The position numbers and the translations under genes are program-made. A stretch of 32,000 bases of DNA from the NCBI GenBank assembly GCA_964551375.1, contig CAZKBG010000002.1, forward strand, positions 45,558 through 77,557, read 5' to 3'. The notes beneath the pieces were generated by a model. It was not told where the DNA came from. It saw only the letters and a list, made by a program, of their open reading frames with translations, and made no database searches. This DNA comes from an uncultured archaeon. GTDB lineage: Archaea > Iainarchaeota > Iainarchaeia > Iainarchaeales > JAAZKV01. Shown here in pieces: positions 2,820-25,468 of this stretch. Position 1 is the first letter of the stretch, and the number at the start of each line of letters is the position of its first letter.

Positions 2820-5123
2820 TTATTCGTCTTTATCCTTCTTTTCAGGCTTTTCTTTTTGAAGCCTTGGAATCATAGTGGTTGAAATCCAATTCTTCCACTG
2901 CCCAAGAAGCTGGTCATAATTAATTTTGCCGTCCTCTTCAATCATAGTTTCTTTCATCAAAAGAAGCTTGTTGTTGCAAAGACTTGTGTGCTCCGCTTCA
3001 AGAAGACTTTTTAAATTAAGAGAATTTTTCTGCTCAACGAGGAATAGTTTTGCATTCGCCCTCAATCTGATTTCAGCCCAAATATCGCTCACAGTAAGCC
3101 CGCTTGTTTTCTGAATCTTTTGTAATAATTCGCTTTCTTTTAAATTATCTTCCATTAATTCAAGAGAATCTTTTGCGGCGTCAAAACTCATAAGCGCAAG
3201 CAGTCCGCCTTCAACTGAAGGGTCAGTATTCCAGTGCTTTTTAATTTCAGTAATTTCAACAACTCTTCTCTGTCTTCCAAGGCTTCCCTTAAACCTAATG
3301 GGTCTAGCAACAACAATCAAATCAGTCGCCTTAAATGAAGTTGTTGGAACTCCTAAATCGTTAACAACACGGTCCCAAACAGAATAAGCTGAATCAGCGT
3401 GAATTGTTCCAAGAACTACATTTCCCGCAGCTCCAACACGCATTGCTTCATACAAAACTTTTGCTTCCTTTGATCTTACTTCCCCGATAACAAGAGCAGA
3501 ATCACCTAAACGAAGAGCGGTACGAAGAGCTTCTGCAGGGTCAACTTCAGTTTCAGTTTTTGAAACACTAATCGGACTTCTTGTTTTAAGTCTTTGAATG
3601 TTAAATCCAATATCCTTCATATAAGGAACAGGAATTTCAAGAGTGTCTTCCTGAACAATAATTCTTGAGTTCTGAGGAATTTCAAGCATCATTGCCTGAA
3701 GAAGAGAAGTTTTTCCCGAGCCTCTTGAGCCCGCAATAAGAGTAGTCGCCTGCATATCAATAAAGAAGCTAATCATTCCTGCTGCAAGCGGATTAATGTA
3801 ACTCACATCAATAAACTGCTCAAGCGTCCAAGGCGTCATTTTATGCAATCTAAACGCAAAACCATAACTTGAAGGAGTAAGAGGAGGGCCGATTAACGCA
3901 ACTCTTGTTTCAAGGTCCGCCAAATCATAATCAAGAACAGGATGCGCTTCATCAAAAGGCCTTGAAGACATCGCTCTTAATTTTGAAATCAAACTATTTG
4001 CCTCAAATTCAGTGAAAGTAATATTTGTCTGGCACTGTCCGTACTCAGAATGAACAATATAAATTGGGCGCGAGCCAATCGGTGAGTCAATGTAAATATC
4101 GGTAATTCTTCTGTCGTTTAATAAAATTTCTAAAATACCATATCCAACAGTGTATCTTGCAACAACTTTTGAAAGAGAGGACATGTCATCAGGAGTAATT
4201 GCAATTCCGCTCCTTGCTGCAATTTCTTTTATTGTTGATTCGTACAAACGCTCAAAGTATCTTCTTGAAGTCGCAACAGTGCTTAAGGAAGTTCTTCCCG
4301 GCTTGTATGCTGAAACAACTTCCCTTGTTCTGCTCAAAACAAAATACTGGTCAGGCGCAAGCGAATACTCGGGCGGATTTATGTAATAAAGTTTCTCAAC
4401 TTTATTCGGGTCCGCAAAAACCTGAACGCTTGATTCTTTCACAGGATACTCGTCAAGAAGCTCAAAGTTTTCAATCCCTGAAAAAGAAAGTTTTGAGCCG
4501 ATAAAGCTTGGCTTAATATCAGCTTCAAAAAGCGCTTTGTAAATAATGCTTGTTTCAGGAACTTGCTGTAATTCAGTAAGAAGTTTTTTTGCTCTTATTA
4601 CAAGAAGAAGCGCGTCAAATCTGTTTCTTAAATCAACAAGAGTTGCGACATACGGTTCGGTGCACTGGATATACCCTGCTCCTGCCTGCTTTAATTTTTC
4701 TTCCTCTTTTCTTAATTCCTGAATTAAGCTAAGATATGCAAGAAGCGGATCATAATTAATCAAATCGCTTGCAATCCTTACTACCATCTGGTGGCGCTCT
4801 GAAAAAAAAGCCTCGCAGTCCTTTCCTGCCCTTCCAAGATGCCCAAAACTCCAAACACTCTCAACGCTTAATTTCTGCGCGAAGTTAGCCACTTCCATCA
4901 GCATTTTTGTCTGGACATCCTCGTAAACTCTCTCATACTTTTCGCTAAATACAATCTTGTCAGCTTCAACTTCCTGCAAAACTTTTATCACGTGGAAACG
5001 GCAGTGATGGTCTTCCCCGATTGAAGCGCTGTAAATACAGTTTTTACAGTCAAAAATAAGCGCACGCTTGCCGCCAATGTCTTTAACAACAAAGTCTCCA
5101 ACCTTGTATCCGCCAATCTTCAT
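2820..5123 (-). CDS. Type II/IV secretion system / archaeal type IV pilus-archaellum family ATPase (FlaI/PilB/GspE-like), unusually long at 767 aa
   Basis: Walker A GSRGSGKTS (aa 465-473, nt 3705-3731). Asp box RIIVQEDTLEIP. Walker B DSALVIGEVR. His box LGTIHADSA. An upstream N-domain motif RITDIYIDSPIGSRPIYIVHSEYGQCQTNITF is typical of FlaI-type ATPases. GGTGA (complement of 5130-5134) lies 6 nt upstream of the ATG. Confidence 0.9.
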   Translation of the reverse strand: MKIGGYKVGDFVVKDIGGKRALIFDCKNCIYSASIGEDHHCRFHVIKVLQEVEADKIVFSEKYERVYEDVQTKMLMEVANFAQKLSVESVWSFGHLGRAGKDCEAFFSERHQMVVRIASDLINYDPLLAYLSLIQELRKEEEKLKQAGAGYIQCTEPYVATLVDLRNRFDALLLVIRAKKLLTELQQVPETSIIYKALFEADIKPSFIGSKLSFSGIENFELLDEYPVKESSVQVFADPNKVEKLYYINPPEYSLAPDQYFVLSRTREVVSAYKPGRTSLSTVATSRRYFERLYESTIKEIAARSGIAITPDDMSSLSKVVARYTVGYGILEILLNDRRITDIYIDSPIGSRPIYIVHSEYGQCQTNITFTEFEANSLISKLRAMSSRPFDEAHPVLDYDLADLETRVALIGPPLTPSSYGFAFRLHKMTPWTLEQFIDVSYINPLAAGMISFFIDMQATTLIAGSRGSGKTSLLQAMMLEIPQNSRIIVQEDTLEIPVPYMKDIGFNIQRLKTRSPISVSKTETEVDPAEALRTALRLGDSALVIGEVRSKEAKVLYEAMRVGAAGNVVLGTIHADSAYSVWDRVVNDLGVPTTSFKATDLIVVARPIRFKGSLGRQRRVVEITEIKKHWNTDPSVEGGLLALMSFDAAKDSLELMEDNLKESELLQKIQKTSGLTVSDIWAEIRLRANAKLFLVEQKNSLNLKSLLEAEHTSLCNNKLLLMKETMIEEDGKINYDQLLGQWKNWISTTMIPRLQKEKPEKKDKDE

Positions 5124-5276
5124 TATAATTCACCAATGCTTCTAAACTTAACTTCAGTTAATCCAAATTAACCTTTTTTTGATTTGTCCTGATGTGTAAT
5201 AAAGCAAGTAAGAAGTATAAAAACTTGATTTTATCACAAGTAAACTTATTTAAGCTTCAAGAACGTTATCTGGCTC
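5124..5276. promoter_or_regulatory. Divergent intergenic promoter region between the ATPase (-) and the archaeosortase-like gene (+)
   Basis: A 153-bp AT-rich spacer. On the plus strand, AAACTTATTTAAGC (5242-5255) lies about 25 nt upstream of ATG 5277, which looks leaderless. On the minus strand there is a TTTTTATAC-like element (complement of about 5213-5225) and a GGTGA ribosome binding site. Confidence 0.4.
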
Positions 5277-5918
5277 ATGAGCATAAAGAAAAAAACCGCC
5301 AAACTTTCGCAAAAAAAAAGCGGGGCAGGGTTCATTCTTGACTATTTTAAAGAACAGCACAAAAAAATCAGAACCGACAAAAAGAAACAGTTTGTTTTCT
5401 TTGTTTTGGGATTTGTGCTTTCATACCTGATTCTTACAGTTTTAGTGAGCATAGTTCCTGATATTTACTATAAAGAAGCAGTTGGGGGAATGGTTAGAGG
5501 AGCGCTTGGAGCGCAAGGGATAAACACCACTTCAGTTGGCAATGTTGAATGCATGGAATTTTCATGGCTGAGCGACACTGCAAAAGGAAGCTGCTATTCA
5601 TTCACCGCAGAGGGAAAGAATATTGTAATTTCCTGGCTCTGCACGGGGATTTTAGAAATAATAATACTAATATGCGCAATAATTGCAAGCTTTGGAGTAA
5701 AATGGAAAGAAAAAGCTGTCGGGATTATAGCCGCAATAATTCTTGGAATAGTTTTTAACATTTTAAGAATAGGGATAACAATAAATCTCATCTTTTCGCA
5801 GGATGTTGCAACTGTTGAAATAGCCCATGATGCTTTATTTAGAATAATTTTGTTTGTTTACATAGCAGTCGTTTATATTATTTGGTTTTATTGGGCTGCG
5901 AACAAAAGCGAACGATAA
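5277..5918 (+). CDS. Short exosortase/archaeosortase-family membrane protein (213 aa)
   Basis: Polytopic membrane protein. The family signature triad appears in the expected order and context: Cys122 in ISWLCTGILEI (the C-S/T-G motif), Arg164 in FNILRIG (the N-x-x-R motif) and His184 in EIAHDALF. The Cys-Arg spacing is 42 residues, as I recall it for characterised archaeosortase A. Lys-rich cytoplasmic N-terminus. Confidence 0.65.
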   Translation: MSIKKKTAKLSQKKSGAGFILDYFKEQHKKIRTDKKKQFVFFVLGFVLSYLILTVLVSIVPDIYYKEAVGGMVRGALGAQGINTTSVGNVECMEFSWLSDTAKGSCYSFTAEGKNIVISWLCTGILEIIILICAIIASFGVKWKEKAVGIIAAIILGIVFNILRIGITINLIFSQDVATVEIAHDALFRIILFVYIAVVYIIWFYWAANKSER

Positions 5919-5950: not shown

Positions 5951-5967
5951 AAAAAGGTTTATTAAGC
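5951..5967 (+). promoter_or_regulatory. BRE/TATA-like promoter element for giant gene 1
   Basis: AAAAAGGTTTATTAAGC lies about 45 nt upstream of the TTG start at 6007. An SD-like AGGGGAT (5995-6001) lies between them. Confidence 0.3.
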
Positions 5968-6006: not shown

Positions 6007-9000
6007 TTGATTTCAGAAAAGCTTGCGGGGTTTTACACAAAGCTTGAAGACAAATATTTTGATGTGCTTGACGCGCTTGACAAAAAAGGCATACCAGTTT
6101 ATGCTTATTCTGATTTTTTTGAAAATAAAGGAATACCAAGCTTTGTTGTGACAATAGCAATAATAGTCGCAATAATCGCAATTGTAACGCTTGCTCTAAC
6201 TTATCAAGGCGCTGATGTCGGCGAATTAACTTTATCATTAAAAGACAGCGACGGACAAAGCCTAAATGATGTTTCACTTGTAATAAAAGACGCAAAAGGA
6301 GAAGTGCTTTTTGAAGGAAGCGCAAGCGACGGAGAAACGATAAAATTAAACCGTGCGCTCTTTAACGGCGAAGAAATATCAATAACCGCCGAGGTGGAAG
6401 GATACCAGCCAAAAACAATCGCATTCACAGTCGGCGAAGAAAATAATGTTCCCAAATTATCATTTGACCCTTATTTTGAAGGAATTGAAGCTGCAGTAAG
6501 AGTAATTGATTCTGAAGGCTCAACTCCAGTATATGACGCAACAGTGCTTGCAAATTCAAGAGCAAATTTAAGCTACCAGTTTGTTTCAGACCAGAACGGA
6601 ATTTACAAAAAAAGCGGAGTTCCTGCCGGAGTAGATTTACTTCTAAAAATAACAGCAGAAGGATATGACAATTACGAGCAGACAGTTTCATTTAGAGCGG
6701 GCGAAGTAAGAGAAGTAATGCTTACTCCTTCAAATAATGGACTTGCGGCAGAAGTAAATATTGCAATTGATGTCTCAGGACCAGATGGCAAATCAATTGA
6801 CCAGGCAAAAGTAACTGTGTACGACAAAAGAAATTCAACAGTTCTATTTAGCAGCTACACAACAGACGGAACAGTGGTTGCAAAATTACTTTCAGGAGTT
6901 CCGCTAAGAATTGTTGTTGAAAAACAAGGGTACTTAACTTATGATTCTGATGTAGACGGCGGAGGAGTAACTGTACGAACTGACGGATTAAGATTCCCAG
7001 TTAAACTAAGACTTGGGGGGCAGAAATTACACGTAACTGTGCTTGATTCACAGTCAGCATTCGGCGTTGAAGGCGCAACAGTTCAATTGTTTAGAGAAAC
7101 AGGAGAATTAATTTCAAGCCAGGTTTCAAAAGTTTCAGGAGCTGAATTTAGCGGAATTGATTCAAATTTAACAATTTACGTTACAGCATACAGAGACGGA
7201 TACCTTCCCACAAGAGAGAAAGTAAGAGTAAGCATCACTGAAGAAGTAAAAATACTGCTCAATAAAGTAACTTCAAATAATTCAACAAGACTTGACATTT
7301 ACACGCTTGACAAGCTTGGAAAAACAGTTAACGGCGTAAAAATTTTAATAATTGATATTAACGGCTCGGAAAAAGTGCCTTATGGAATTCCAGAAATTGA
7401 AACAAGCGTTGCGGGATACGTTAATGCGACAGTTGCAATCGGAAAAACATACTCTGTAAAAGGATACACTGATGTTCTTGACGGAGCAATTGATGTTGAA
7501 GTAAAACAGGGCGAAATAGAAAAGAAAGTTTACTTAAAAATGCTGAAAAAATCAAACGTTTTAGAAATGAAATTCATTGACGTGTTTGGAAAAAATGTAA
7601 AAGGCAAATCCACAATATCAGGGCTTGACGGGACAATATTATTTGACGGACCGATTTTAGAAGGAAGCATATTCTTTGACGCGCAGCAAAAAGACGTAGT
7701 TGAAGTAATGGTTACAAAAGATGACGGAAATGTATTCACTGAAAATGTCACAGTAAAAGGAAAAGACTATGTTGAAGTAATGGTGTATTCAAAAGACTCC
7801 GCAGCTCTTTCTCCAACAATTGAATTTATTGGAATTGAAGACGAAAGTGGAAACGTAGCTGATGGAATAATTCCAGGCGCATTCTTCTGGGCAAAATTTA
7901 ATGTAACATTCCCAAGGTCAGCAACAAAAGGCGGAGTTCACTTTAGAGTAGGGCAGGACGATGTTGAATTTGTTGAATCAGAAAAATTTGCGTTATATGA
8001 TTTAAGCATGCAAAATGCGACAGTTGATTACTCTTTATCCTATACTCCTTTGCCAGCCCCAGGAAACGAAATAGTTGACAGGGCGAATAAAGGAACTCAA
8101 GGAAGCAAAAACAAGTGGATTGAAGGAGTTGTAAGCCAGCCCCAAGGAACATACACTGCAAAAATTAAAGTAAGAGCTGAAGACTTTTTAGCGGGAAAAG
8201 CAGAGTTAAAATTCAGAGCATGGGCAATAGTTGGCTCGGATTATTACAGAATGCCCCAAGACGCAGATCTTTTATCAAAAGGATACAGCGATAAAAAAGC
8301 GGCATTATACGCGCTGACAAGCACTCAATCAGTTACAATTTACGAATCCCTTCCTGAATGCGCGGATAATTTATGCATGGCAGTTAATTTTGTTGACGAA
8401 GACGAACAATTCCTAAATGAAAAAGGATTTGAAGCATGGAAAGGAAAACAATACGCAATTGAAATTGAATTATCAGCAAAAGAACAGGAATATGCGCAAG
8501 TTACAGTAACAACTGATGCCAATATTGATTTTAGCTCCTCGCAGACAACCAATTTTGGATTTGTAAAAAGAGGAGAGCAGATTGGGCAAGTAAAGAAAAC
8601 AGCAGCAGCTGCAGTGACAATAGCTAAAGGCGGAAAACAGAAAGTAAGATTCTACTTCACAGCAAACAAAGTAGGCGCGGCTTCAATTAATGTAAGCGCA
8701 ATAGGAAAATCAACAGTAGTAAAAGATGTTTTATTTAACGTAGTGGAAGAAAAATCACTTCTTATAGAATTATCAGAAAATCAGGTAATGGCAGGAAGAA
8801 ACTTTACAGTAAGAGTGACTGACTCGGGACTTAAAGGAGTAGAAAATGCTCTTGTAAAAATAATTGACAGCGAAGGAAAAACCGCAAAAAGCATTCTTGG
8901 CGACGGAACTGACGGAAAAGGAAAAAACGGATACTATAGAATACAAAATAATTTAGGAGTGGGCCTTTACACTGTTGAAGTATCACTAACAGGATATGCT

Positions 9001-12000
9001 ACACAAGCGCTTCCTTTGATGATTGCGACTCAAAATGTGCTTGCATTCAAAGAAGAACTTGAAGCAAAACTTCCAGTAAATCAAAAAAGCCTTGTAATAA
9101 CAGAAGCGCTTACAAACGAATCAGAATTTACAGTTCAAAATATTACAATCCAGACTGAATCAGAAAATGAAAAAGAAAAAACTGTTTCAAAAACAAGCAC
9201 AAGCACTACTGCAACTGACAGTTTCAAAGTAGTTGCTACCACAACCCCTGCATTAAGCAAAGGACAAAAACAGCCAGTGCAGATTACAGTAAGCTACCTT
9301 GGAGATTTAACAGAAAGCGCTGATGAAACAACCACAATTTCAATTTCAGGACTTGTTGAAGGAAAATTCCTCACAAAAACAACAGCAAAACTCCACATGA
9401 TGTATAATAAAAAACTTGACCCGACATGCCTTGAAGTAAAACCATCAAACGCGGTTCTAAATCTGCTTGGAAGCCCAGGCTCAACTGATACTACAACACT
9501 TGAAATTACAAATAACTGCGAAACAGCTCTTTACATTGCAAAAAGAATAAGAGAAACAACAACAGGCGCGCTAAGAGGAATGCAGCTTGACGCTGATAAT
9601 ATAGACCTTCAGCCAGGCGAAACAAAGAACCTTACAATTAGCGCGGTAAACCAGATAGCAAGAGGAGCCTCAAGAGAGCAATCCTTCGGATTTGAACTTG
9701 TTTATGACTCAAACGCAATTAAGAAAACAATTCCAGTAACAGTAAAAACAATTAATCCGGTATTTGCGCTTAATTACCCTGCGCAAATAACTCTATACTT
9801 AGCGCAGACAAATGTGAATGAAAAAGCAACTGCTGCACAGCCGATATTTATCTCAAATAGGTCATCCTTCCCAATTGATAATATACAATTAGCGCAAGGA
9901 ACTGATTCACTATCTCAGGCAAATGTAAAACTCACAATCGAACCAACTGCAACTGTAAGCCTCCTTCCTGGACAGGCAATATCCCCTCCAAAAATATTAT
10001 TCGCTTCAGCAAGCTCAAGAATAACCGAGCCGGTAAAAGCAAGAATTGACATAAGCGGAACAATGGGAAACCTTGAAAACAGGTCATGGCAGAACGACAA
10101 TTACGGCTATTCAAATAATTACACAAATTCTTCAAGATCAATAAATACTTACTCGCAGGCAAACTCAAGAAATTACTATAATAATTACTACGGAAGCACA
10201 GGGCAAATGCTTGGCTCAATAGATGTAACAGTATTCTATTCAGGATACAACTGCTTAACAGGACACGTTACTGAATCATTCTTCTTCCCAAGCGAAGGCG
10301 GGGAAATAGGAAAATTAATTAAAATAGTAAACGGATGCGCTGAACCAGTTACAGTAGTGGGAGTGTCGCAGGCATCTCAGGCAAAAAGCCAGACAATCTT
10401 TGGAATGCCAGCAGTAATGACTTCAATTATGATGGGAGTGCCAAGAGTAAGCGTAGCTCCAGGACAAATGATACAAGTTCCAATGACAATTAGAACAGCA
10501 ATACCAAATATAAAAAGACAAAATTACCAAGTAGTGCTTGAAGCAATTTCAGAAGTAAGCCAAACTCCAATTACTTCAAAACCATTCCCAGTAAATATTT
10601 CATCAGGAAACAGCACAAGAGAAGAGCATGTTAAAGGCGCTCCTGTAAAAGTAAAAGTATGCGGCTCGCAGACAGAAACAGAAGTAGTAATGCCAAAAAT
10701 AGTTGAAAACGCAAACTGCGCAGAAGGATACTGCGATGCAAAAAACGCTGTGAAATACATTGCCGCAAAAGTTGAAAAAGTAATACAAAACGCAAGATCC
10801 CAAGGATACTCATACAAAAACACAATTGAAAATGAAGTAATACCGTGCCAAGTAACAGGAATATGCACATTCGAAGAACTGAATATGGTTCCTGAAGAAT
10901 TTGACTTATACTTACAGAACGACAGAATCACTCCAGAACTGCTTGAAGCTGAATTAAACAAAGTTCAATACGAAGGCGCAAACAATACTCCATACAGAGA
11001 AACTGTTGGAACAACAAACGGATTAGTAGTAGAGCCAAAGTATGTTGAATTATCAGTAATCAGAGGGTTCATACTAACAGGATATTATAGAAGAATATTC
11101 CTTGACCCAGCATTTACTGGATGCGGATATTATAGAATTGCAATAAACGGAGCATTCCCAGCAGGACCTCAAGGGCTTGACTCAATGTCCCCAGTACTTT
11201 CAATAAATGCAGTTCCTCAAAATTCAAGAAGCTCCCTATTAACAAACGAGTGCGTTTCATCAATACAAAATATTGAAAACTTCAATCCAATAGACACAGG
11301 ACTTGAGCCTGGAAGAGAATTCGGCACATGGATGACAACAATAACCACTGATTCACAGCTAAAAGACCTCGCAACACAAATATCAAAATCAAGATACAAA
11401 TCAGAAAAGAGAGTGGCATCGGGAATCGGAAACAAAGTTGAATTAAAAGTTGGAGCATTAACTGGCATACTTGCGCAGGCATGCATAAGCGGAAATGACA
11501 GAAGAACAATTTCAGTTACAATTGCGGACACAATGCTAAGAACAAATGACGCTGCGACAAAAACTGCGTTTAACACAGCAGTTGTAAAAATGATTTCAGA
11601 CGCATTGAACGGCTCATTTGGGGACAACTGCCTTGTGAGAAGCGGAGATTCATACTCATGCGTTAACTTAACTGACTTGCCAAGCTCAATAGGCAAAAGA
11701 CAGCTTGCTCTCCTTAACACTTCTATTAACTTTATTTCCCAAAACGGGGGGTGCACAACTGGAACAGTGTACTCAAATGTTCCTGAATCGCTCAACTTTG
11801 AAGTGACTCCAAATTCAGTTAAAAAGGAATTTATTGGAATAAGAAGAATTTCAATAAGCGCTGATGATGCTTTAAACGGTCCGATTGCCACAATTTCAAA
11901 AACACCAACTGGAAATACTACAGTTGGAACAACTACAAATGCTTCCTCAACTTCATCAGCACAGCCTGCTGTTTCAACTCAACCACCTACTCCAACTCAG

Positions 12001-14883
12001 CCTTCTGCTCCGACTCCACCAGCAGGAGGAAATACATCTGGAAGAACTCCTCCGACTCAGCCGCCCGCTCCGACTCCGCCAACTGCATCTAATGCAAATT
12101 TAAATTCACAACTGCCAGCTTACTCTTCAAAAGCAATTGAAACAGGCGAAATGTACTCCAAAACATTCTTTGGAGCGACTCAAAACCAGTCTTTAGATAA
12201 GCCGATGGTGCTAAAGGAAAATCCGGCTTCTTCGGATTATAGATATTATAGAAACATAAAAATCTGCGCAGAACCTGGCGACTCACAATTCAGCGGAGTA
12301 GACCCACAGCTTGCATACATACAAGCAAATGGAGTGCAGTTTGATGTTGAAGTTCTAAATAGAGAAGCAAAAGAAAATAAAGGAACCTCAAAACAGACTA
12401 TCACAATTTCAACAGGAACAATGCACCCTGATGATTTAATTACCGCAATCGCAGACATTACAAGCAGACGCATTGAGCCAGGAAAGCCTTATTACTTAAC
12501 AGCAATGTGGGAAGGAGGACCTGACGCATTAAACCTTGAAGCTTATAAAAATTCATTATTAAAACAGGGAAAACTGAAAGGAACAAGCATTGCTGGAGAC
12601 GAAAAAACAGACGGAACACTTGATGCGCAGACAAAAGGAAAAGCTGCTGCATTTAATAAATATCTAATGAATTGCGCAGTATCTTCTGCGATATGCAACG
12701 GACTGCTCGGCCCTGCTAATGCAGTTCTTGGAGTTCTTGGAGACTGTGGAATTCCAGCTACTCTTGTGCTAAGAGAAGATATGTACGCCGCTTACCCTTC
12801 ATCAAGAAGCGTGGGAGAATTAATTTCAGGCGCTGTTGGAACAATAATCGGCGCATTAAATACTGTATTTGAAACAGTTGGACTTGGAAAAGACTTGATT
12901 CCAAAAAATCTTTTCGGAGATGAAGGGCTTGGAAGGCTTGCTCCTCAAAGCTGGTCTGAAGCAAATGTAAAAACAAAAGCAATAGTTGAAGGAACTATAG
13001 GCGGACTTGGAGCAGAAGCTCTTAGAGCGGCTCCGCTTGGATTGTCAAGATTTGGAGGCGCATTAAATAAACAGAGCATAAGCGCTTACTCAACAGAAAT
13101 AGGGACGCTTTACGAAAAGCAGATGCAGACTTTGCTTGAGTCTTCAATAAATCCTGCATTAACTACTGCTGAAAAAGAGGCAATGAAAAGAACTGCCGGA
13201 CAAATTGCAAAAGAATATGGACAGACTGTTTCAGAAAGCTTTTCTAAGAACCTGCTTGACCAATACGACGCAGCATGGAAAAGAAAAGGATTCCCGTTGA
13301 ATTTTGAGAGCAACCTTTATGCTACTGCAGTTCCGGATACTGAAAAAGCAGTTGGGGAAGCGCTTTCAAAATCAAAAATAAGCACAGGAGAATTCCTTGC
13401 TAAAAAATCATCAACAGGAGTGACAAACATTGAGAGATTATTCAACGGAACATCAGTGGCTGATATAAAATCAAAAGGACTAATTGCGCCTGCAAGCGAC
13501 CTTGAAACAATTTTTAACAGACAATTCAGCCTTGATGCAGGAACATTCAATTCGAAAATAATGGAAAAATTCAAAAGCTACGGGTATACTGAAGGCTCAT
13601 ATGTTACAAAGAATCTCACTTCAGACGATTTGAGACCGATTGTTGAAGATTTAATTAAAGAAGACTTAAAAGTTACTGACGGAGTTGCGCGAAAGAAAAT
13701 TGTTGATGATATTCTTAGAAAAATGGCTACAGGTTCAACAACATCTACGGGGGCATACACTCCAAAGAATTATGCTGCTGCAACAGAAACAATTTCAAAA
13801 GGAACTAAATTTTATTCAGGAGGGGCATCTCCTCAAACAATACTATCTGATGTAAGGTCTGCTGCTGATGATGTGCTTAACGATTATTTGATAAAGAGCG
13901 GAAAAATGGCTGATTTTGCAAAAACTGCAGGCGCAGAGCTTGACAAAACAATAGCCGGCGCATTGTCTGATGATGTTTCAAAAGTTGGCAAAGCTTCAAA
14001 GTGGAAAGCCGCAGCACAAGGGGTTTTTACAAAGCGCTTTGCGGGGATGGCTGCAACAGGAATTTTATGCGGAGTAGCATCAAACGCAATTGGAATGAAT
14101 GCTTATGACTCACAGCTTCAGACAACAATAAAAGAAGAAGGAAAAAGAATTGTTGAACTTCCAAATATAATACTTGAAAAAGGACAGACTTACCTGCTAA
14201 AGAAAAGCGACAAAGAAGTAAACGGCAAGAATCCTTACTCAATGACAAAAATTGCAAACCAGTCAGATTTGACTACCCCAGTTCTTGGAAAACAGCCAGA
14301 AAGAATTTCAAGCCAGCCTGACAACAAAGACAAGCTTCCTGAACAGAGACCGCTTACTGCTTACCCAATAGTAACAAACAGAACCGTTGCAATCAAACTT
14401 GCGACAAGCAAAGAAGGCTCGGTATTTATGAAAACAAATGTTGGAAGAGATACTGCAAAAATACAGGAATCTGATCCGTTCATTAGATTCTCAAATCCAG
14501 AATTCATCGCGCTGGTATTCAAATACACAGGCATGATTGGATTTGACTGCAAGCAAAAACCTGCTGCTTCTGCAAATGACACTGTGGCTATGGGAGCAGA
14601 GCCGCTTGCTATTGCAATAGGAACAACAAAAGCAGCATTGAGAGAATATACTTCTGAAGGTGTGAGCAGGGAATATAATGGAGAAAGCACATGGCTCAAA
14701 GAGAAACTCCGAATTGCGCTTGAAGCGAGAAAAAGCACAGCTGATAAAATTGACTTGAGCGTGGCAAAGAAAGTATTCCCAAAAGCAAATCAGGAAGATT
14801 TGCAGATATTCGTTGACGATGTTGCATTCTGGGAAAAAGCATTTACTCAATCTTCTCAAGAGTCGGCTAACTACTGCCCATAA
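6007..14883 (+). CDS. Giant surface protein 1 (2958 aa): N-terminal signal-anchor, multiple carboxypeptidase-regulatory-like/PEGA/Ig-like beta-sandwich repeats, P/T linker, ~930-aa C-terminal region with Gly-zipper hydrophobic segments
   Basis: Uninterrupted 8.9-kb ORF with a TTG start. The N-terminus ISEKLAGFYTKLEDKYFDVLDALDKKGIPVYAYSDFFENKGIPSF plus a TM helix (aa 45-66) is paralogous to the other two giants. Repeated modules follow the pattern xLTLxhxDxxGxxhxxhxhxhxD...G...h....GY, for example ELTLSLKDSDGQSLNDVSLVIKDAKGE...EVEGYQPKTIAFTV. Many N-x-S/T sequons. Confidence 0.85.
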   Translation: MISEKLAGFYTKLEDKYFDVLDALDKKGIPVYAYSDFFENKGIPSFVVTIAIIVAIIAIVTLALTYQGADVGELTLSLKDSDGQSLNDVSLVIKDAKGEVLFEGSASDGETIKLNRALFNGEEISITAEVEGYQPKTIAFTVGEENNVPKLSFDPYFEGIEAAVRVIDSEGSTPVYDATVLANSRANLSYQFVSDQNGIYKKSGVPAGVDLLLKITAEGYDNYEQTVSFRAGEVREVMLTPSNNGLAAEVNIAIDVSGPDGKSIDQAKVTVYDKRNSTVLFSSYTTDGTVVAKLLSGVPLRIVVEKQGYLTYDSDVDGGGVTVRTDGLRFPVKLRLGGQKLHVTVLDSQSAFGVEGATVQLFRETGELISSQVSKVSGAEFSGIDSNLTIYVTAYRDGYLPTREKVRVSITEEVKILLNKVTSNNSTRLDIYTLDKLGKTVNGVKILIIDINGSEKVPYGIPEIETSVAGYVNATVAIGKTYSVKGYTDVLDGAIDVEVKQGEIEKKVYLKMLKKSNVLEMKFIDVFGKNVKGKSTISGLDGTILFDGPILEGSIFFDAQQKDVVEVMVTKDDGNVFTENVTVKGKDYVEVMVYSKDSAALSPTIEFIGIEDESGNVADGIIPGAFFWAKFNVTFPRSATKGGVHFRVGQDDVEFVESEKFALYDLSMQNATVDYSLSYTPLPAPGNEIVDRANKGTQGSKNKWIEGVVSQPQGTYTAKIKVRAEDFLAGKAELKFRAWAIVGSDYYRMPQDADLLSKGYSDKKAALYALTSTQSVTIYESLPECADNLCMAVNFVDEDEQFLNEKGFEAWKGKQYAIEIELSAKEQEYAQVTVTTDANIDFSSSQTTNFGFVKRGEQIGQVKKTAAAAVTIAKGGKQKVRFYFTANKVGAASINVSAIGKSTVVKDVLFNVVEEKSLLIELSENQVMAGRNFTVRVTDSGLKGVENALVKIIDSEGKTAKSILGDGTDGKGKNGYYRIQNNLGVGLYTVEVSLTGYATQALPLMIATQNVLAFKEELEAKLPVNQKSLVITEALTNESEFTVQNITIQTESENEKEKTVSKTSTSTTATDSFKVVATTTPALSKGQKQPVQITVSYLGDLTESADETTTISISGLVEGKFLTKTTAKLHMMYNKKLDPTCLEVKPSNAVLNLLGSPGSTDTTTLEITNNCETALYIAKRIRETTTGALRGMQLDADNIDLQPGETKNLTISAVNQIARGASREQSFGFELVYDSNAIKKTIPVTVKTINPVFALNYPAQITLYLAQTNVNEKATAAQPIFISNRSSFPIDNIQLAQGTDSLSQANVKLTIEPTATVSLLPGQAISPPKILFASASSRITEPVKARIDISGTMGNLENRSWQNDNYGYSNNYTNSSRSINTYSQANSRNYYNNYYGSTGQMLGSIDVTVFYSGYNCLTGHVTESFFFPSEGGEIGKLIKIVNGCAEPVTVVGVSQASQAKSQTIFGMPAVMTSIMMGVPRVSVAPGQMIQVPMTIRTAIPNIKRQNYQVVLEAISEVSQTPITSKPFPVNISSGNSTREEHVKGAPVKVKVCGSQTETEVVMPKIVENANCAEGYCDAKNAVKYIAAKVEKVIQNARSQGYSYKNTIENEVIPCQVTGICTFEELNMVPEEFDLYLQNDRITPELLEAELNKVQYEGANNTPYRETVGTTNGLVVEPKYVELSVIRGFILTGYYRRIFLDPAFTGCGYYRIAINGAFPAGPQGLDSMSPVLSINAVPQNSRSSLLTNECVSSIQNIENFNPIDTGLEPGREFGTWMTTITTDSQLKDLATQISKSRYKSEKRVASGIGNKVELKVGALTGILAQACISGNDRRTISVTIADTMLRTNDAATKTAFNTAVVKMISDALNGSFGDNCLVRSGDSYSCVNLTDLPSSIGKRQLALLNTSINFISQNGGCTTGTVYSNVPESLNFEVTPNSVKKEFIGIRRISISADDALNGPIATISKTPTGNTTVGTTTNASSTSSAQPAVSTQPPTPTQPSAPTPPAGGNTSGRTPPTQPPAPTPPTASNANLNSQLPAYSSKAIETGEMYSKTFFGATQNQSLDKPMVLKENPASSDYRYYRNIKICAEPGDSQFSGVDPQLAYIQANGVQFDVEVLNREAKENKGTSKQTITISTGTMHPDDLITAIADITSRRIEPGKPYYLTAMWEGGPDALNLEAYKNSLLKQGKLKGTSIAGDEKTDGTLDAQTKGKAAAFNKYLMNCAVSSAICNGLLGPANAVLGVLGDCGIPATLVLREDMYAAYPSSRSVGELISGAVGTIIGALNTVFETVGLGKDLIPKNLFGDEGLGRLAPQSWSEANVKTKAIVEGTIGGLGAEALRAAPLGLSRFGGALNKQSISAYSTEIGTLYEKQMQTLLESSINPALTTAEKEAMKRTAGQIAKEYGQTVSESFSKNLLDQYDAAWKRKGFPLNFESNLYATAVPDTEKAVGEALSKSKISTGEFLAKKSSTGVTNIERLFNGTSVADIKSKGLIAPASDLETIFNRQFSLDAGTFNSKIMEKFKSYGYTEGSYVTKNLTSDDLRPIVEDLIKEDLKVTDGVARKKIVDDILRKMATGSTTSTGAYTPKNYAAATETISKGTKFYSGGASPQTILSDVRSAADDVLNDYLIKSGKMADFAKTAGAELDKTIAGALSDDVSKVGKASKWKAAAQGVFTKRFAGMAATGILCGVASNAIGMNAYDSQLQTTIKEEGKRIVELPNIILEKGQTYLLKKSDKEVNGKNPYSMTKIANQSDLTTPVLGKQPERISSQPDNKDKLPEQRPLTAYPIVTNRTVAIKLATSKEGSVFMKTNVGRDTAKIQESDPFIRFSNPEFIALVFKYTGMIGFDCKQKPAASANDTVAMGAEPLAIAIGTTKAALREYTSEGVSREYNGESTWLKEKLRIALEARKSTADKIDLSVAKKVFPKANQEDLQIFVDDVAFWEKAFTQSSQESANYCP
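10087..10206 (+). repeat. Tyr/Asn/Ser-rich low-complexity segment inside giant protein 1
   Basis: WQNDNYGYSNNYTNSSRSINTYSQANSRNYYNNYYGSTGQ. Confidence 0.7.
11980..12087 (+). repeat. Pro/Thr-rich linker with an internal duplication inside giant protein 1
   Basis: QPPTPTQPSAPTPPAGGNTSGRTPPTQPPAPTPPTA. The unit PTQP(S/P)APTPP occurs twice. It separates the beta-sandwich-rich part from the C-terminal region. Confidence 0.75.
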
Positions 14884-14995: not shown

Positions 14996-15029
14996 AGAAT
15001 TGATTTGATTGTCAAGTTTAGTTGATTTT

Positions 15030-16496
15030 ATGATATATCCAAAAATTAGCCAGAGAGGATTTAACATGTTCTCCGCAATAGTTGCGGTTCTACTAATCAT
15101 GGCTGGAGTGGTAATAACAAACACGCTAATTTCAACCGAAGAAAAAACAAATCGGCAAGTTTACTCAATGCTGAATAATTATCAATTAACCGATGCCGCC
15201 GCAGTTGCAAGAGCAGATGCGCTTCAGAACTTTAATTATGCATTTAGAGTGCAGATGGAAAATTATCTTACTTACGACAAATATGAAATGGGAGAATATG
15301 CTGATGATGAAACAAGCGGACTTGGATTATTTACTATAACCACTGGAAGCGAAGCTTTCACATTCACTGAAATGAAAGCAGCATTTGAACAATCGGTTCT
15401 GCAAAAATCAGGCCCGGGGGACTTTAATTCAGTGCTTGAATACGTTGCGGGAAACACGGTTAATCAATTTCAGGAAAGAACATACGGAAGATTCAGCGTT
15501 TACTTAAGCGAACGATCCGAAGACAGAGCGGGAGCGCAGGCAAAAGTAAAAGATGTATTATACGCGGCAACTGCTCCTCATATGAATAACTTATTTGATG
15601 TAGTTGAATGCGGAGAGAACGAATGCAAGAATGGCTCATTTTATTTTAACATTCCATTAAACGAAATATCTGACTCGCAGTACGAATCACTGCCAAGAAT
15701 TGTAGTAAAAGACCTTGTTACTCATGAAGAAATAAAAATGCCAATCCTTCCAAGAACAAATATTAGAATTTACATGCCGCTGCGATTTTTCAAAGCAATA
15801 TTTGAAGCAAGAAAATTTGCAATTATAATGAGAGCGCAGCATAATGCACTTCAAAGCTACCGGCTTGGATTCTGCGATCCTGGATGCGCTCCAAGAACAC
15901 ATCCAGTGAATGCCTCAACTGGCTCTTATGGAAAGAACTGCCCCCAGACTGATTCAGGGGATGCTTCAACAGTAGCATTATCAGCAGCTCCGCTTGGAAT
16001 AACTCAATACCAAGCAGGGGGAACAAATGCTGGCTCGCTTGGACTTAAAGCCCACGCTACTGAACTCTTATGTTCCTATGCTGGCGGAATCTTTGACACC
16101 ACTGACACCACGTTCATGCCTTTTTCTAATTCACTAAAAGCAAAGGACCCCCAAATGGTTGATGTGGCAAACTGCCCCATTCATGCAATTACTGTGGAAC
16201 TTCCTAATGCAAAACCTATGTTTGAAATGACAGGGCTTACAATTTCCTACGCTGATGGGCTTGAAAAATATTTAAGATGCGGATGGATAATGGGAATCAC
16301 TTCACAAGTTGTTTTTAAAGAGACAAATCCGCTTTACATTGTTAGAGGAACATATGATCAGGGAAAAGTTGACTTATTTAAAATACAAATAAAGGATGTG
16401 GCTTTCCCTGCGCAGTGGAGCGCGGACGGAACTTACCCTACTCCGACAGCAAAATGCAAAGCAACAGGAAGCGCATGCGAGACATACACCTCTTAA
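15030..16496 (+). CDS. Large secreted protein with a class III (type IV pilin-like) signal peptide (488 aa from ATG 15030; the track ORF starts at TTG 15009)
   Basis: The N-terminus is MIYPKISQRG/FNMFSAIVAVLLIMAGVVITNTLIS. It has a short basic leader, Gly at the putative -1 position and then an uninterrupted ~22-residue hydrophobic helix, as in archaeal prepilins. The rest is Cys-containing and hydrophilic with no recognisable motif. Confidence 0.6.
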   Translation: MIYPKISQRGFNMFSAIVAVLLIMAGVVITNTLISTEEKTNRQVYSMLNNYQLTDAAAVARADALQNFNYAFRVQMENYLTYDKYEMGEYADDETSGLGLFTITTGSEAFTFTEMKAAFEQSVLQKSGPGDFNSVLEYVAGNTVNQFQERTYGRFSVYLSERSEDRAGAQAKVKDVLYAATAPHMNNLFDVVECGENECKNGSFYFNIPLNEISDSQYESLPRIVVKDLVTHEEIKMPILPRTNIRIYMPLRFFKAIFEARKFAIIMRAQHNALQSYRLGFCDPGCAPRTHPVNASTGSYGKNCPQTDSGDASTVALSAAPLGITQYQAGGTNAGSLGLKAHATELLCSYAGGIFDTTDTTFMPFSNSLKAKDPQMVDVANCPIHAITVELPNAKPMFEMTGLTISYADGLEKYLRCGWIMGITSQVVFKETNPLYIVRGTYDQGKVDLFKIQIKDVAFPAQWSADGTYPTPTAKCKATGSACETYTS

Positions 16497-16640
16497 GCGC
16501 AAAATCAGTATTTTTTGAATTAAGAAAATGATTTTTCGCCAATAGATGCGTGTTAATCGCCATCAAGATAAGATTAATAAAGGGAAGAATGATATAATTA
16601 TTATAGTGAATAAGTTTTATTCAACTTATAAGTGATGAAA

Positions 16641-19600
16641 ATGGGTATTGGGGACTCTCTAAGAGACGCTTATTATTCGCTCGAAGACAAATGGTACTCT
16701 TTCATTGACGGAGTTTCTGAAAAAGTTCCCGCTGTGGGCAGTTTTGTTGACGCCCTTGAAGACAAAGGCATACCAAGTTTCCCTGCTTTTATATTATTAA
16801 TAATAATAATAGTGGCTCTATTGGCATTTTTCTTTTTATCATCATCACAAGCAACACTTACAATCAAAATCACTGACGACACAGGAACCGGAGTGGAAGG
16901 AGCAAGCGTAATAGTGCTCCAAGATGACGTTGAAATCGCAAATGTTACCACAAAAGAGAACGGACTTGCGGTATTTTTGCTTCCAAGAGGCGAATACAGC
17001 TTAAAAGTTGACAAAGAAAATTATTCTACTTCTACAAAATCAATAACGCTTGACGGCGACAAGGAAGAAGATTTGACACTAAGCCTTGAAGACACTACAA
17101 TTACAAAAGCTGTTTACTTAAAAACCGCTAACGGCGAACTTGTGAGCGGAAGCGGAACAGTAATTTACAGATGCAGAGGAGACACTGGAGATCAGACAGC
17201 GACTTATGCAAGCGGGAAGTTTGACGCGACAGTAAAAAAATCCTGTGCAGCAGTTGAAGTTATTACAATACAAAATTATAATTTAGTAGAGCCAATCGCA
17301 TCATTCTCTGGAAATTCAGCGGTAACAGTTGAACAAATAGTTGTATTGACTGGGAGAGTTACAGTTTCATTATCAATCGCAGGCTCAACAGATCTGCCTC
17401 CTGCGGGCGTAAGAGTACAGCTTGTTCCAAATGATAACACAACTTCAATAAGCGCAATAACACAAGGGGGCGCAGTAGTTGTATTTGAAGAAGTTCCTGT
17501 AAAAAGTTATTATGTTCTTGTAACAGACCCAAACGGAGCATTCTCTGTTTTTGACGGCTCAAAATTAAACGAGACAAAAAATGTTTTAAAAGGTGAAACA
17601 ACTCAATTCACAGCAGCGCTTGCAAGAGTGCAGGCGACAAAAATTATAGTTAATGTAAAAGACTCAGCAACAGGGCTTCCTGTAAAAGGAGCTGAAATAA
17701 AACTAACTTCCGCAGCAAACACAAATGATGTTTTAACAAAAATAACAGGCGCATTAGGGCAGGGCGAATTTTCAGTAGCGCAAGGCTCAAACTATGTTGT
17801 TACAGTTGACCATCCTGACTATGTTTCAGGAAAAACAATGCCCGCAGCTGCAGGCGAAACAATCAACTTCCAAGTGGAAAAGGTTGACTCATCAAACAGC
17901 AACACTTTAACAGTGCAGGTAGTTGACTCAAAAGACAAACCTGTTGATTATGCAAGAGTGGTACTGAAGAAAATTGAAGCAAACGAGCCAATTGTCGGAG
18001 AAAAAATTACAGGGGCAAGCGGAGAAGCGCAGTTCTTCAACCTTGAAGTAGGAAAATCATACATTGCGTCAATTTCAAAAGAAGGATTTGGAAGCCAGAC
18101 TTCGCCAAGCGTGCAAATAGAGCCAAAATCTGGAAAAACAGTAAAAGTAACATTTGATATTGGATACGGAAAAGTTTTAGTAAAAGTTCTTGACCCTGAA
18201 AAAGCAGTTCTTGCAGGAATCAGCGTAAAAGCATTTAATTCACTAACAACAAAGCAGGAAGGAGAAGCACTATTAACAGGAAGCGACGGAATTGCGGAGT
18301 TCTCTGAAATCAGAGCGGATAAGAAAGTATTCTTTATAATTGAATCAAGCGCTTACGCAAAATATTTCACAGCAACAGTGCAGCCAACTGCAAATGCAGA
18401 GCTTGGAAAAGAAGTAGTGCTAATGAGACCAACTGGAAAACTGCTTGCTGAGCCAGTAATAATATTTAGCGGAACAGAAGAAATGAAAAACGGCGCAGGA
18501 AGCGAAGTTGGAGTAAGCCAGGGAATTTACACTCTAAAAGCAATACTGCAGGTTCCAAAAGGACAATTCAGCGAAGCAGGAATGCATATTAGAACAGGAA
18601 AACAAACTCAAAATTTGACTAACAATTTAGAAGAAGACGGACTTTACATTTCAACAATAGAAGCATCAGGAAGAATAACAAAAGGAACCTCTTACACTCC
18701 GCCAACTGGATATGATATTGACTCAAAGAACACCACACAAGGCAATGCAAAATGGGCAAATATAGTGTGGAAAAACCCTGCTGAAGGAACTTACGAAGTA
18801 GAAGCTGAAGTAAGCGTAACAGAAACAAACCCAAATGTGCCTCTTGAATTATTCTACAGAGGATGGGCTAAAGGAAGCGCAACACTAAGAGACCCTGCAA
18901 GCAACGTAGCAGGAAATGAATTATACTCAATTGCAAAAAGAAAAATACTTTCAGTTGGCTCGGCAAGCATGTGCACAGCAAGCTTCTGCAAAAGTTATAT
19001 TCTAACTCCATTAACAGGCTCTGAAGCAGGAAGAGCAAGAATAGTAAGCGGAACAGTAGAAGCAAAGAAAGGAGTAACTTACTCACTAACAGCAGATTTG
19101 ACTAATTACAGCGGAAAAACAATTTCAGGAGCCGCACTAAGCGTTGAAGGAAAAAGCGTTGATATTAATTCAATTACAATTAATGATGTTCCTCAAACTG
19201 ATTTAGCAAGCTCAATAAATCTTGGAAACATCGGAGCGGATTCGCCAGTAAAAATAGTTGTTACATTCACAACAAAAACAAGCGGAAGTTCAGGAGTAAG
19301 ATTCATAATTAACTCCTCAACAAAGAACGAGTTTGACGAACTGATTGCAATTAATGTTAAAGTAAACAAAAAATTCCTGCTTTCAATTGTTCCAAAAATA
19401 ATTATCCCTTACATTAACAACACAATGTTCTTTGAAGCAACTGATGGAAATAACTCACTAAGCGGAGTATTAATCCAAATCAAAAACGGAAAGAACACGC
19501 TTGGAAAAGTTGAAACAAGCGGAGAAGGACTTGCAACTTACGAACTTAGCGAGCCAAAACTTGACGATGAAATAACATTTATCGCAAGCAAAGAAGGATA

Positions 19601-24397: not shown

Positions 24398-25468
24398 GTG
24401 GATAATAGAGTGCTGACATTTGTACTAATAAGCATAATTGCATTCTTGTCAGGCTTTGCCGCTTCATACCTCTTTCCAATTCAAACTCCTTTTGTTGATG
24501 TTCCATTCAGCGTTCTTGCAATAGGATTAATCCTTGGAGGGGCCGCTTTTTTTGGATATCTTGGCTTTATTCCAGCACTTCTTTTGGGACTCCAGCTGGG
24601 CGCGGAAAAAAACGCGGCAGTATTCATTTACATTGCGCCTGTAATACTTGCAATTTATGCGGGAACTTATATTGGAGTTTTAATAAACAAAGATTTTGAA
24701 AGAAAAGAAATATTTGCAAAAAAAGCAAAAAATATTATTGTAATAGTGGCAATCGCCCTTGTAATATCATTCGCGGTTGAAATGGCGGTGCCGTACACTG
24801 TAGAGTACTGGCCGAAGGATTATCTTGGGATGAGTGTGGGCGGAGGATATATGTCATATGATTCCGATTTGACAGGGGAAAATATTATTTTAAGGGGAGA
24901 TTCATTAACAATTCCAATTGAATTAAAACAAATAGTTGTTGGAAAGAACAATGCTTCCGTGTTTAACACTTCAACGAATGCGATTTTAAAAATAAAAGAC
25001 GCTGATGAAGGCACGCCAGTTTATGGGGCTGAAGTTACTGCCACAAGCCAGAGCGGAAATGAACATGAATTTATTGAAACTTCAAGCGGAATGTACAAAA
25101 AAGATCAGTTCCCATTCGGAGAACAAGTAACATTAATTGTAAAATCAAAAGGATACGAAGAGTACAATAAAAAAGTTACATTTAACCGCGATATTATAAA
25201 TGAAATCTCGCTTACTCCAGAACCTGTGGGCGAGGAAGCAGAATCAAGCGTTACAATAAGGGTATTTGGAAGCGATGGAAAGACAATAAACCAGGCAAAA
25301 GTAACTGTTTATAATAAAGAAACATCCGCAACACTCCAAATAGGATACACTCAAAACGGACAAATTACGCTTAAAGCAATGACTGGGACAAGACTGAGAA
25401 TAGTTGTTGAAAAAGGAAGCACAGCCGCAGGGCTTATTGGAAAACTTGCGAGCCTTAAAAGAAGATAA
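24398..25468 (+). CDS. Polytopic membrane protein (about 5 TM helices) with C-terminal extracellular beta-sandwich domains (356 aa)
   Basis: GTG start with a strong AGGTGA ribosome binding site. Hydrophobic helices in aa 1-135 include VLTFVLISIIAFLSGFAASYLF, VLAIGLILGGAAFFGYLGFIPALLLGLQLG, VFIYIAPVILAIYAGTYIGVLI and IIVIVAIALVISFAVEMAV. The C-terminal part has carboxypeptidase-regulatory-like modules. Residues 282-341 are about 50% identical, by hand alignment, to residues 249-308 of giant protein 1. Confidence 0.75.
   Translation: MDNRVLTFVLISIIAFLSGFAASYLFPIQTPFVDVPFSVLAIGLILGGAAFFGYLGFIPALLLGLQLGAEKNAAVFIYIAPVILAIYAGTYIGVLINKDFERKEIFAKKAKNIIVIVAIALVISFAVEMAVPYTVEYWPKDYLGMSVGGGYMSYDSDLTGENIILRGDSLTIPIELKQIVVGKNNASVFNTSTNAILKIKDADEGTPVYGAEVTATSQSGNEHEFIETSSGMYKKDQFPFGEQVTLIVKSKGYEEYNKKVTFNRDIINEISLTPEPVGEEAESSVTIRVFGSDGKTINQAKVTVYNKETSATLQIGYTQNGQITLKAMTGTRLRIVVEKGSTAAGLIGKLASLKRR

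Follow-up and report, generated by a model that had tools for sequence, protein, structure and literature searches.

The stretch of DNA analysed here (the window: 32,000 nucleotides, positions 45558-77557 of contig C2 of G000, a 1.09-Mb, 93% complete assembly of an uncultured Iainarchaeota archaeon) encodes a 213-residue protein, S1, that on the evidence of its sequence is a genuine member of the exosortase/archaeosortase family, with active-site residues under strong constraint. The Iainarchaeota order to which this genome belongs holds two ancient archaeosortase lineages, of which S1 represents one; S1 appears not to be the general sorting enzyme of the cell but a fixed part of a conserved surface-apparatus gene supercluster, and its candidate substrate is a secreted protein of ~1,500 residues, here called CT1500, which ends in a conserved tail signal and is encoded on another contig. 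Coordinates without a prefix are window positions; C1 and C2 denote contigs of G000.

S1 has the hallmarks of a short-form archaeosortase

An earlier note on this DNA had pointed to a 213-residue open reading frame (ORF) with a Cys122/Arg164/His184 signature, and the sequence is as it described, with the motifs L121-C122-T123-G124, N161-I162-L163-R164 and A183-H184-D185.

5277..5918, + strand: S1, short archaeosortase-family protein, 213 aa (ORF with ATG start; TIGR04178 match, conserved residues, hydropathy and AF2 model)

Against TIGR04178, the NCBIfam exo_archaeo signature (97 positions, cut-off 23 bits), S1 scores 36.4 bits (E = 4.9e-9), residues 118-206 aligning with model positions 3-94, and the same match is recovered by a six-frame search of the genome. 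The second family model, Pfam PF09721 (Exosortase_EpsH), aligns with the last ~80 residues only and gives 16.3 bits, under its cut-off of 25.7, so that of the two kinds of model the earlier note had proposed as a check, one bears out its assignment and the other does not. PF09721 is founded mainly on long forms with eight transmembrane (TM) helices, and a precomputed match to it is present in many S1 orthologues (45-59% identity).

The alignment of the active site, the other check that had been proposed, supports the assignment fully. Across 172 family members (19 S1 sequences, 19 sequences of the second paralogue S2 described below and 134 distant representatives), Cys122, Asn161 and Arg164 are each present in all 172 and His184 in 170, with gaps in the other two. 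Overall identity among these relatives is just 25-45%, and conservation of the four residues in spite of it indicates purifying selection on the active site. The same figures make it very improbable that S1 has lost catalysis and keeps the family fold only as a scaffold or membrane adaptor in a pilus-like machine, a role that its small size and its mere four TM helices would otherwise suit. Cys173, Arg214 and Arg253 are critical for the activity of Haloferax ArtA (PMC9263693).

Among curated subfamily models, S1 scores best with XrtH (TIGR04177, 33.4 bits), XrtX (NF046081, 31.3), XrtF (TIGR04128, 28.5) and XrtG (TIGR03110, 26.3), reaching none of their cut-offs (86-170 bits); it scores 16.3 bits with ArtD (TIGR04175, cut-off 125) and has no match at E <= 10 with the ArtA model (TIGR04125, cut-off 75). 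By these scores it belongs to none of the tested curated subfamilies. NCBI and JGI already annotate close S1 homologues as 'exosortase/archaeosortase family protein', and sequence comparison places S1 in a new subfamily of this known, already annotated family. As for its size, which the earlier note had called miniature, S1 is indeed short, yet not exceptionally so: the curated short models span 150-190 positions (ArtD 150, XrtM 150, XrtH 158, XrtK 163, XrtX 168, XrtF 174, XrtG 187), and nearly all of the best 150 relatives listed from a library of 1.84 billion proteins are 140-260 residues long. Its small size is ordinary for the family.

Hydropathy resolves four hydrophobic helices, with TM1 at residues ~39-57, TM2 beginning at Cys122, TM3 ending at Arg164 and His184 standing just before TM4. 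Because the N terminus is basic (13 Lys/Arg among the first 38 residues) and a KWKEK loop lies at 140-146, the positive-inside rule puts both inside the cell and predicts that Cys122, Arg164 and His184 lie outside, at the helix ends. The AF2 model (pLDDT 80, pTM 0.69) has the same four long helices, together with a small three-stranded sheet in the outer loop at ~84-118. Among solved structures there was no fold match to S1 at E < 0.9, and by sequence only designed 'Pizza' propellers matched; the profile of residues 61-112 finds these beta-propellers in the PDB with whole-sequence E values down to 3e-6 and no single significant stretch, and the likeness of the outer loop to them was judged spurious, an artefact of repetitive targets. 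That S1 is a functional short-form archaeosortase can be regarded as close to shown; it would be a polytopic cysteine endopeptidase or transpeptidase, with Cys122, Arg164 and His184 predicted at the outer membrane face.

Two archaeosortase lineages in the order

A genome-wide family search found a second archaeosortase paralogue, S2, elsewhere in G000, which complicates the assignment of a substrate.

C1:832095-832637 (neighbourhood C1:832095-833923): S2, second archaeosortase paralogue, 182 aa

Among 151 sampled genomes of this GTDB order, 53 of them of high quality, S1 is found in 132 (52 of the 53) and S2 in 136 (50 of the 53). The two form separate clades with 100/100 support in a maximum-likelihood tree, and they differ in residues that are invariant within each, Glu127 and Arg189 in S1 as against Ser and Phe at the same positions in S2. 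S2 scores best with ArtD (53.2 bits, cut-off 125), and it gives 23 bits with pacearchaeosortase and 19.6 with ArtA (cut-off 75). Its neighbours are a CDP-archaeol synthase (161.6 bits with NF003114, whose cut-off is 148) and a TIGR00297/DUF92 protein, with SecD/SecF divergent, an arrangement seen in nearly all of 20 fetched S2 loci. This lipid-gene context recalls the linkage of artA with pssA/pssD in Haloferax (PMC9263693), and S2 is for that reason likely to be a general lipid-anchoring enzyme in a housekeeping context.

S1 in a conserved gene supercluster

The surroundings of S1 are of a different kind. The supercluster runs from CT1500 through small membrane proteins, 6-7 pilin-like genes and a platform gene to a dedicated ATPase gene, and then, divergently, to S1, a giant N-anchored protein and a ~500-aa pilin-like protein. 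Of 20 fetched S1 loci from ~15 GTDB families, 17 have the ATPase, a ~765-aa T2SSE protein, within 10 kb of S1 and divergent from it; an orthologue of giant 1, the giant protein of the window nearest S1, is found near S1 in ~15, mostly directly downstream and followed by the ~500-aa pilin-like protein. On the ATPase side stand a ~780-aa platform protein and 6-7 small proteins with class III (prepilin-type) signals (...KGQ/AFS...). The ATPase is by far the best conserved protein of the locus, with 59-83% identity to that of the window in the fetched loci of the order; the figure falls to 55-57% in family f3 and to 49% in a distant lineage, where the ATPase-S1 pair is likewise kept. The corresponding values are 30-50% for the sortase and ~25% for the giant. 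The cluster is broken in two in the genus of G000. Its platform and pilin half is found at C1:79097-86525, and in the window collagen-like genes and aCPSF stand in its place.

One ORF of 1,102 codons, P0176 (L180:7134-10442; ENA ERZ27252234, contig k141_2270134), joins an S1-type sortase (residues ~1-190), through a Lys/Arg-rich duplicated stretch, to a protein of ~850 residues with a class III signal at its start, NSKG/FYAVTPFLGVIIIL. It comes from the distant lineage and is divergent from the ATPase that is 49% identical to the one in the window. P0176 is a single case, which from its sequence may be either a natural fusion or a lost stop codon, and its non-sortase part shows no similarity to giant 1 or to p495, the pilin-like protein of the window.

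The assemblies checked in which S1 or the ATPase seems to be absent break where the missing genes should be, and we therefore regard these absences as artefacts. The contigs of G139 and G094 stop just past aCPSF; in G076 and G149 the ATPase lies on the edge of a contig; and in G102, G085 and G115 the pilin operon runs to the contig end, on which ground true loss of S1 in these three was rejected. More broadly, the contigs of eight assemblies (these seven and G121) stop inside or beside the supercluster, whether past aCPSF, within the ATPase or past the pilin genes. The region seems hard to assemble, perhaps because the giant genes vary between strains.

It might be argued that S1 and S2 are redundant or overlapping general archaeosortases and that the position of S1 beside the ATPase is merely inherited gene order. 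Both do keep the same invariant catalytic residues, both are near-universal in the order, and in family f3 S1 is detached from the cluster yet retained. Such redundancy is nonetheless quite unlikely: the two clades are deeply separated, each with its own invariant residues and its own conserved neighbourhood over ~15 families, both sortases are retained in reduced genomes of ~1 Mb, and archaeosortase subfamilies have been described as having one motif each (PMC6098224).

CT1500 as the candidate substrate

A scan of all ORFs of G000 for a C-terminal motif followed by a TM helix and a basic tail, as the earlier note had suggested, gave ~15 secreted proteins in three groups. Of the options it had offered for the substrate, this favours a protein encoded elsewhere in the genome, since one of the ~15, of 1,553 residues, belongs in most relatives to the supercluster of S1.

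C1:89082-93743: CT1500 of this genome, 1,553 aa, secreted; C-terminus SSFNLPSMPETAAGIAVFMMLFLLVAFMTTQGRYKRKRKDLL

This protein has a Sec signal peptide (...NPGFAYA/VESS), no Pfam domain that we could find and a tail composed of FNLPSMPET, a TM helix and KRKRK; its gene lies 2.5 kb past the last pilin-like gene of the displaced half-cluster. In genome G022 the orthologue (1,501 aa, 33% identical) ends in FNLPSLPEN, a helix and RIRK; its gene and S1 are 11 kb apart, on the two sides of an intact supercluster. The corresponding flank, fetched in 15 more genomes, holds an orthologue with a visible tail in 12 and another, cut by the fetched range, in one. With G112, CT1500 stands in the same supercluster in 14 of the 19 genomes checked outside the genus of G000, in G022 and 13 others. 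In families f3 and f30 the orthologue is found elsewhere in the genome with the signal kept.

The signal itself is conserved to an unusual degree of detail: in a database search of the CT1500 family (1,339-1,726 aa, all labelled 'hypothetical'), 70 of 71 protein clusters carry F-N-[IL]-P-S-[LM]-P-E-[TN], followed by a median of 19 uncharged residues and then a median of five Lys/Arg, the sole exception being seemingly truncated. Motif, helix and tail occur together once per genome in G000 and in G022, and the motif abuts the helix, as do the signals cut by membrane-embedded sortases. When CT1500 tails were compared with curated CTERM models, the best score was 13.1 bits, with Loki-CTERM (cut-off 19.9). 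The small membrane protein that is always upstream of CT1500, M2, has no family match and no invariant polar residue, and is for the latter reason unlikely as an alternative protease.

Because of the gene order, and because described archaeosortase subfamilies each go with a motif of their own (PMC6098224), we pair S1 with CT1500, and give this pairing a probability of about 45%. After export by Sec, CT1500 would stay for a time in the membrane through its C-terminal helix, its Lys/Arg tail remaining cytoplasmic; S1 would recognise FN[IL]PS[LM]PE[TN] abutting the helix and cut there, at the outer membrane face; and the new C terminus would be passed, by analogy with ArtA, to a lipid or another anchor. 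The separation of CT1500 from S1 in the genus of G000 would be the result of the lineage-specific split of the cluster.

Several observations weigh against the pairing. S1, S2 and CT1500 each occur near-universally across the order, so the phyletic pattern does not separate S1 from S2, and since each S1-less assembly checked breaks at a contig end where S1 is expected, co-occurrence has no discriminating power. CT1500 is no direct neighbour of S1, as the two stand at opposite ends of the supercluster with 11-25 kb between them. The genes for S1, the ATPase and CT1500 are scattered in families f3 and f30, and in f3 the secreted protein encoded near S1, at 1.3-1.6 kb, has another tail motif, SAFFSL or SGFFTL. 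The gene directly 3' of S1 encodes a giant that has no canonical signal, so that the strongest linkage of S1 is to a protein unlike a substrate. Finally, S2, with its link to lipid synthesis, could process all tail signals, that of CT1500 included.

The remaining tail-anchored proteins provide further candidates. Two recurrent signals were recognised in G000: class A, found on four Cys-rich proteins, with (I/V)PD(N/S)(N/G) directly before the helix, and class B, found on 4-5 adhesin-like proteins, with [TA]G[LF]F[GA][LF][GA] followed by a spacer of 4-6 residues, a TM helix and a basic tail.

C1:261632-265279, 396559-399600, 416080-417273 and 835956-839408: class A carriers
C1:26069-28801, 43129-44196, 346817-349983 and 917827-919767: class B carriers

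None of these tails scores above the cut-off of any curated CTERM model compared (PGF, PEF, PEP, LPXTG, Loki, Heimdall, GPS and others), and PGF_CTERM gives at most 7 bits on the candidate tails. A tail-anchored protein of 434 residues (C1:400476-401780) reaches 19.6 bits with LPXTG_anchor (cut-off 15.9), yet has no LPXTG motif. Tail-signal variants seen in other families of the order include VGLFALG, SAFFSL, VPETN and LPETN.

Since the genome combines two sortases with two or more recurrent multi-copy signals, S1 might process a multi-copy signal, most likely class B, leaving class A and perhaps CT1500 to S2. Gene positions give this some footing: a class-B-like protein lies 1.3-1.6 kb from S1 in both f3 genomes examined and a class B protein 6.5 kb from S1 in G039, while class A proteins are found 3-5 kb from S2 in G000 and G139. 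However, at ~15 tail-anchored proteins per Mb a neighbour within 10 kb is expected by chance in about a quarter of loci, the adjacency counts for S1 and S2 are not above this background, and the classes are mixed; in G008 it is a class-A-like protein (VPETN) that adjoins S1. The 4-6-residue spacer between the class B motif and its helix is also unlike the signals of membrane-embedded sortases. G102, an assembly without S1, has a class B protein, but its contig breaks make this uninformative. G022 (91% complete and fetched almost whole) has the S1-type sortase only and speaks for both readings: its CT1500 signal is intact, in favour of CT1500, and its few tail-anchored proteins comprise, besides CT1500 and 1-2 class-A-like proteins, one class B protein, with VGLFALG, TM helix and basic tail, in favour of class B. 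The pairing is not settled by this genome. On balance we regard the assignment of class B to S1 as possible but rather unlikely.

Neighbours of S1 in the window and the missing tail signal

The genes and sequence elements around S1 in the window are as follows.

2820..5123, - strand: dedicated T2SSE/PilB-type ATPase, 767 aa, divergent from S1 (Pfam T2SSE match)
5242..5255, + strand: AT-rich box AAACTTATTTAAGC, a possible archaeal TATA-type promoter, 22-35 nt 5' of the S1 start (read from the sequence)
near 5951-5967: similar AT-rich box AAAAGGTTTATTAAGC, 5' of giant 1 (read from the sequence)
6007..14883, + strand: giant 1, 2,958 aa, directly 3' of S1, with a conserved ~45-aa N-terminal module that closes with [KR]G-IPSF, and then one TM helix; no C-terminal sorting signal
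15009..16496, + strand: pilin-like protein p495, 495 aa, after giant 1, with the class III signal QRG/FNMFSAIVAVLLIMAGVV
16632..24212, + strand: giant 2, 2,526 aa, paralogue of giant 1 with the same N-terminal module; no C-terminal signal
24398..25468, + strand: 356-aa protein with 4-5 N-terminal TM helices and CarboxypepD_reg-type domains; tail AAGLIGKLASLKRR without a TM helix
25644..32000, + strand, cut by the window end and ending at C2:79474: giant 3, 2,757 aa; C-terminus NTCIDKRP, no sorting signal

The ATPase matches Pfam T2SSE with 67.3 bits; among the seven T2SSE ATPases of the genome it is the most divergent from that model (68.8 bits). The small contigs C3, C7 and C10 (and C5 and C9) of G000 have 48-59% G+C, compared with 37-38% in the two main contigs, and these five are probably contamination of the bin.

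The earlier note had drawn attention to the lack of a tripartite sorting signal among the neighbours of S1, and this stands. Every C-terminus that it quoted is correct (YPIC, YSIC and YNFC for the collagen-like proteins, ANYCP for giant 1, KGAN for giant 2 and ETYTS for p495), and the tail of the 356-aa protein (TAAGLIGKLASLKRR), which it had judged too short for a TM helix, carries none. Its suggestion that giant 3 might be the substrate falls: the gene extends 1,917 bases past the window end, its C-terminus as read from the genome has neither helix nor basic tail, and without a CTERM signal there giant 3 is excluded. A C-terminal signal is likewise lacking from the next giant (C2:79620-87236), from all six giants of the genome and from the giant and p495 orthologues in 20 other genomes. 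The neighbours probably lack a tail signal because the likely target was relocated in the genome by rearrangement; the puzzle is thus largely resolved rather than refuted, the substrate being likely to be encoded elsewhere since the ancestral cluster split in this genus.

The six giants share a conserved N-terminal module of ~45 residues followed by one TM helix. The module (in the window at 6007-6204, 16641-16841 and 25644-25838) reads ..LEDK[WF]Y..LD.L..KGIPVY.. and ends in [KR]G-IP[SA][FL] directly before the sole TM helix; in giant-1 orthologues of 15 genomes [KR]G is invariant, and the site resembles that of a prepilin peptidase with an unusually long leader. The idea that S1 stands in for a missing prepilin peptidase was rejected, as the genome has two A24 peptidases.

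S1 could instead act on its cluster partners, the giant or pilin-like proteins, via a non-canonical site, trimming or anchoring them after prepilin-type processing as an archaeal analogue of pilus-dedicated sortases. It is encoded immediately 5' of a giant orthologue in most genomes of the order, the [KR]G-IP[SA][FL] end of the giants' shared module abuts their sole TM helix, and P0176 joins an S1-type sortase to a class III-signal protein in a topologically consistent manner, beside an orthologous ATPase. Yet the helix of the giants is N-in, which puts their motif on its cytoplasmic side, while the three sortase residues are predicted to face outward; no conserved motif flanks the helix on its outer side; and [KR]G suits the A24 prepilin peptidases, of which the genome has two. 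The P0176 fusion, for its part, is one instance that may have arisen by loss of a stop codon, and outside the sortase it has no likeness to p495 or giant 1. We therefore consider action on the cluster partners unlikely, and retain CT1500 as the preferred candidate.

Implications and comparison with known systems

Taken more broadly, and only tentatively, S1 might be the maturation enzyme of a hitherto undescribed type IV pilus-like surface machine of the Iainarchaeota (DPANN) that displays giant N-anchored proteins, covalently anchoring the ~1,500-aa partner, the giants or the pilins. If so, S1 would be without precedent among archaeosortases in being built into a pilus or secretion apparatus, and FNLPSLPE-CTERM would be a new signal with a single target. 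Experiments on archaeosortases come only from Haloferax, and the enzymes have been described mainly for Euryarchaeota (PMC6098224). What is new here is the paralogue split in a DPANN order, the association of S1 with the ATPase and a giant, and the one-target FNLPSLPE tail signal. An entire order of archaea with reduced genomes has retained two archaeosortases, each with its own speciality: the first is linked to lipid synthesis and Sec, the second to a pilus-like/giant-protein cluster that is a candidate host-contact apparatus. The conserved, uncatalogued tail signal supplies a concrete candidate enzyme-substrate pair and a basis for annotation models of both the sortase subfamily and the CTERM domain, and, if the pairing is true, protein anchoring would be tied to surface machinery on which these symbionts probably depend.

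Gram-positive pilus-dedicated (class C) sortases offer one analogy, being encoded inside the pilus gene cluster and having a Cys/His/Arg active site. They differ from S1 in their unrelated fold and in building covalent pilus polymers, as opposed to the class III-signal pilins typical of non-covalent type IV pili, and no LPXTG-type motif was found in the pilin-like proteins of the S1 cluster. The bacterial rhomboid-protease tail-signal system resembles our proposal in that a processing enzyme is coupled to a machine of the type II secretion system (T2SS)/type IV pilus (T4P) ATPase family that handles the processed proteins, but its enzyme is a serine protease unrelated to the Cys/Arg/His exosortase fold, it is bacterial and concerns the outer membrane, and the coupling suggested for S1 comes from gene order alone.

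Within the family, the short subfamilies (ArtD, XrtH, XrtX, XrtF, XrtG, XrtK, XrtM and pacearchaeosortase) are similar to S1 in length and share its conserved C-terminal core, whereas S1 is set apart by its own invariant Glu127 and Arg189 and its own neighbourhood, and it is S2 rather than S1 that is nearest to ArtD and pacearchaeosortase. The closest experimental counterpart is ArtA with PGF-CTERM in Haloferax volcanii, which shares with S1 the superfamily signature and the invariant Cys and Arg, both being predicted to act at the outer face on the motif, helix and basic tail of a large Sec-exported surface protein; genomes with several paralogues have one motif per paralogue (PMC6098224, PMC9263693). 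The two differ in size (an ArtA model of 271 positions against ~213 residues and four TM helices in S1), in the signal (the candidate FNLPSLPE instead of PGF, and no PGF-CTERM proteins here, the model giving 7 bits) and in the number of targets, one per genome for the candidate S1 signal against 1 to 52 in ArtA genomes. They differ, too, in their gene links: S1 goes with a pilus-type ATPase cluster, and the lipid link, which in Haloferax is to pssA/pssD, lies here on S2, through carS.

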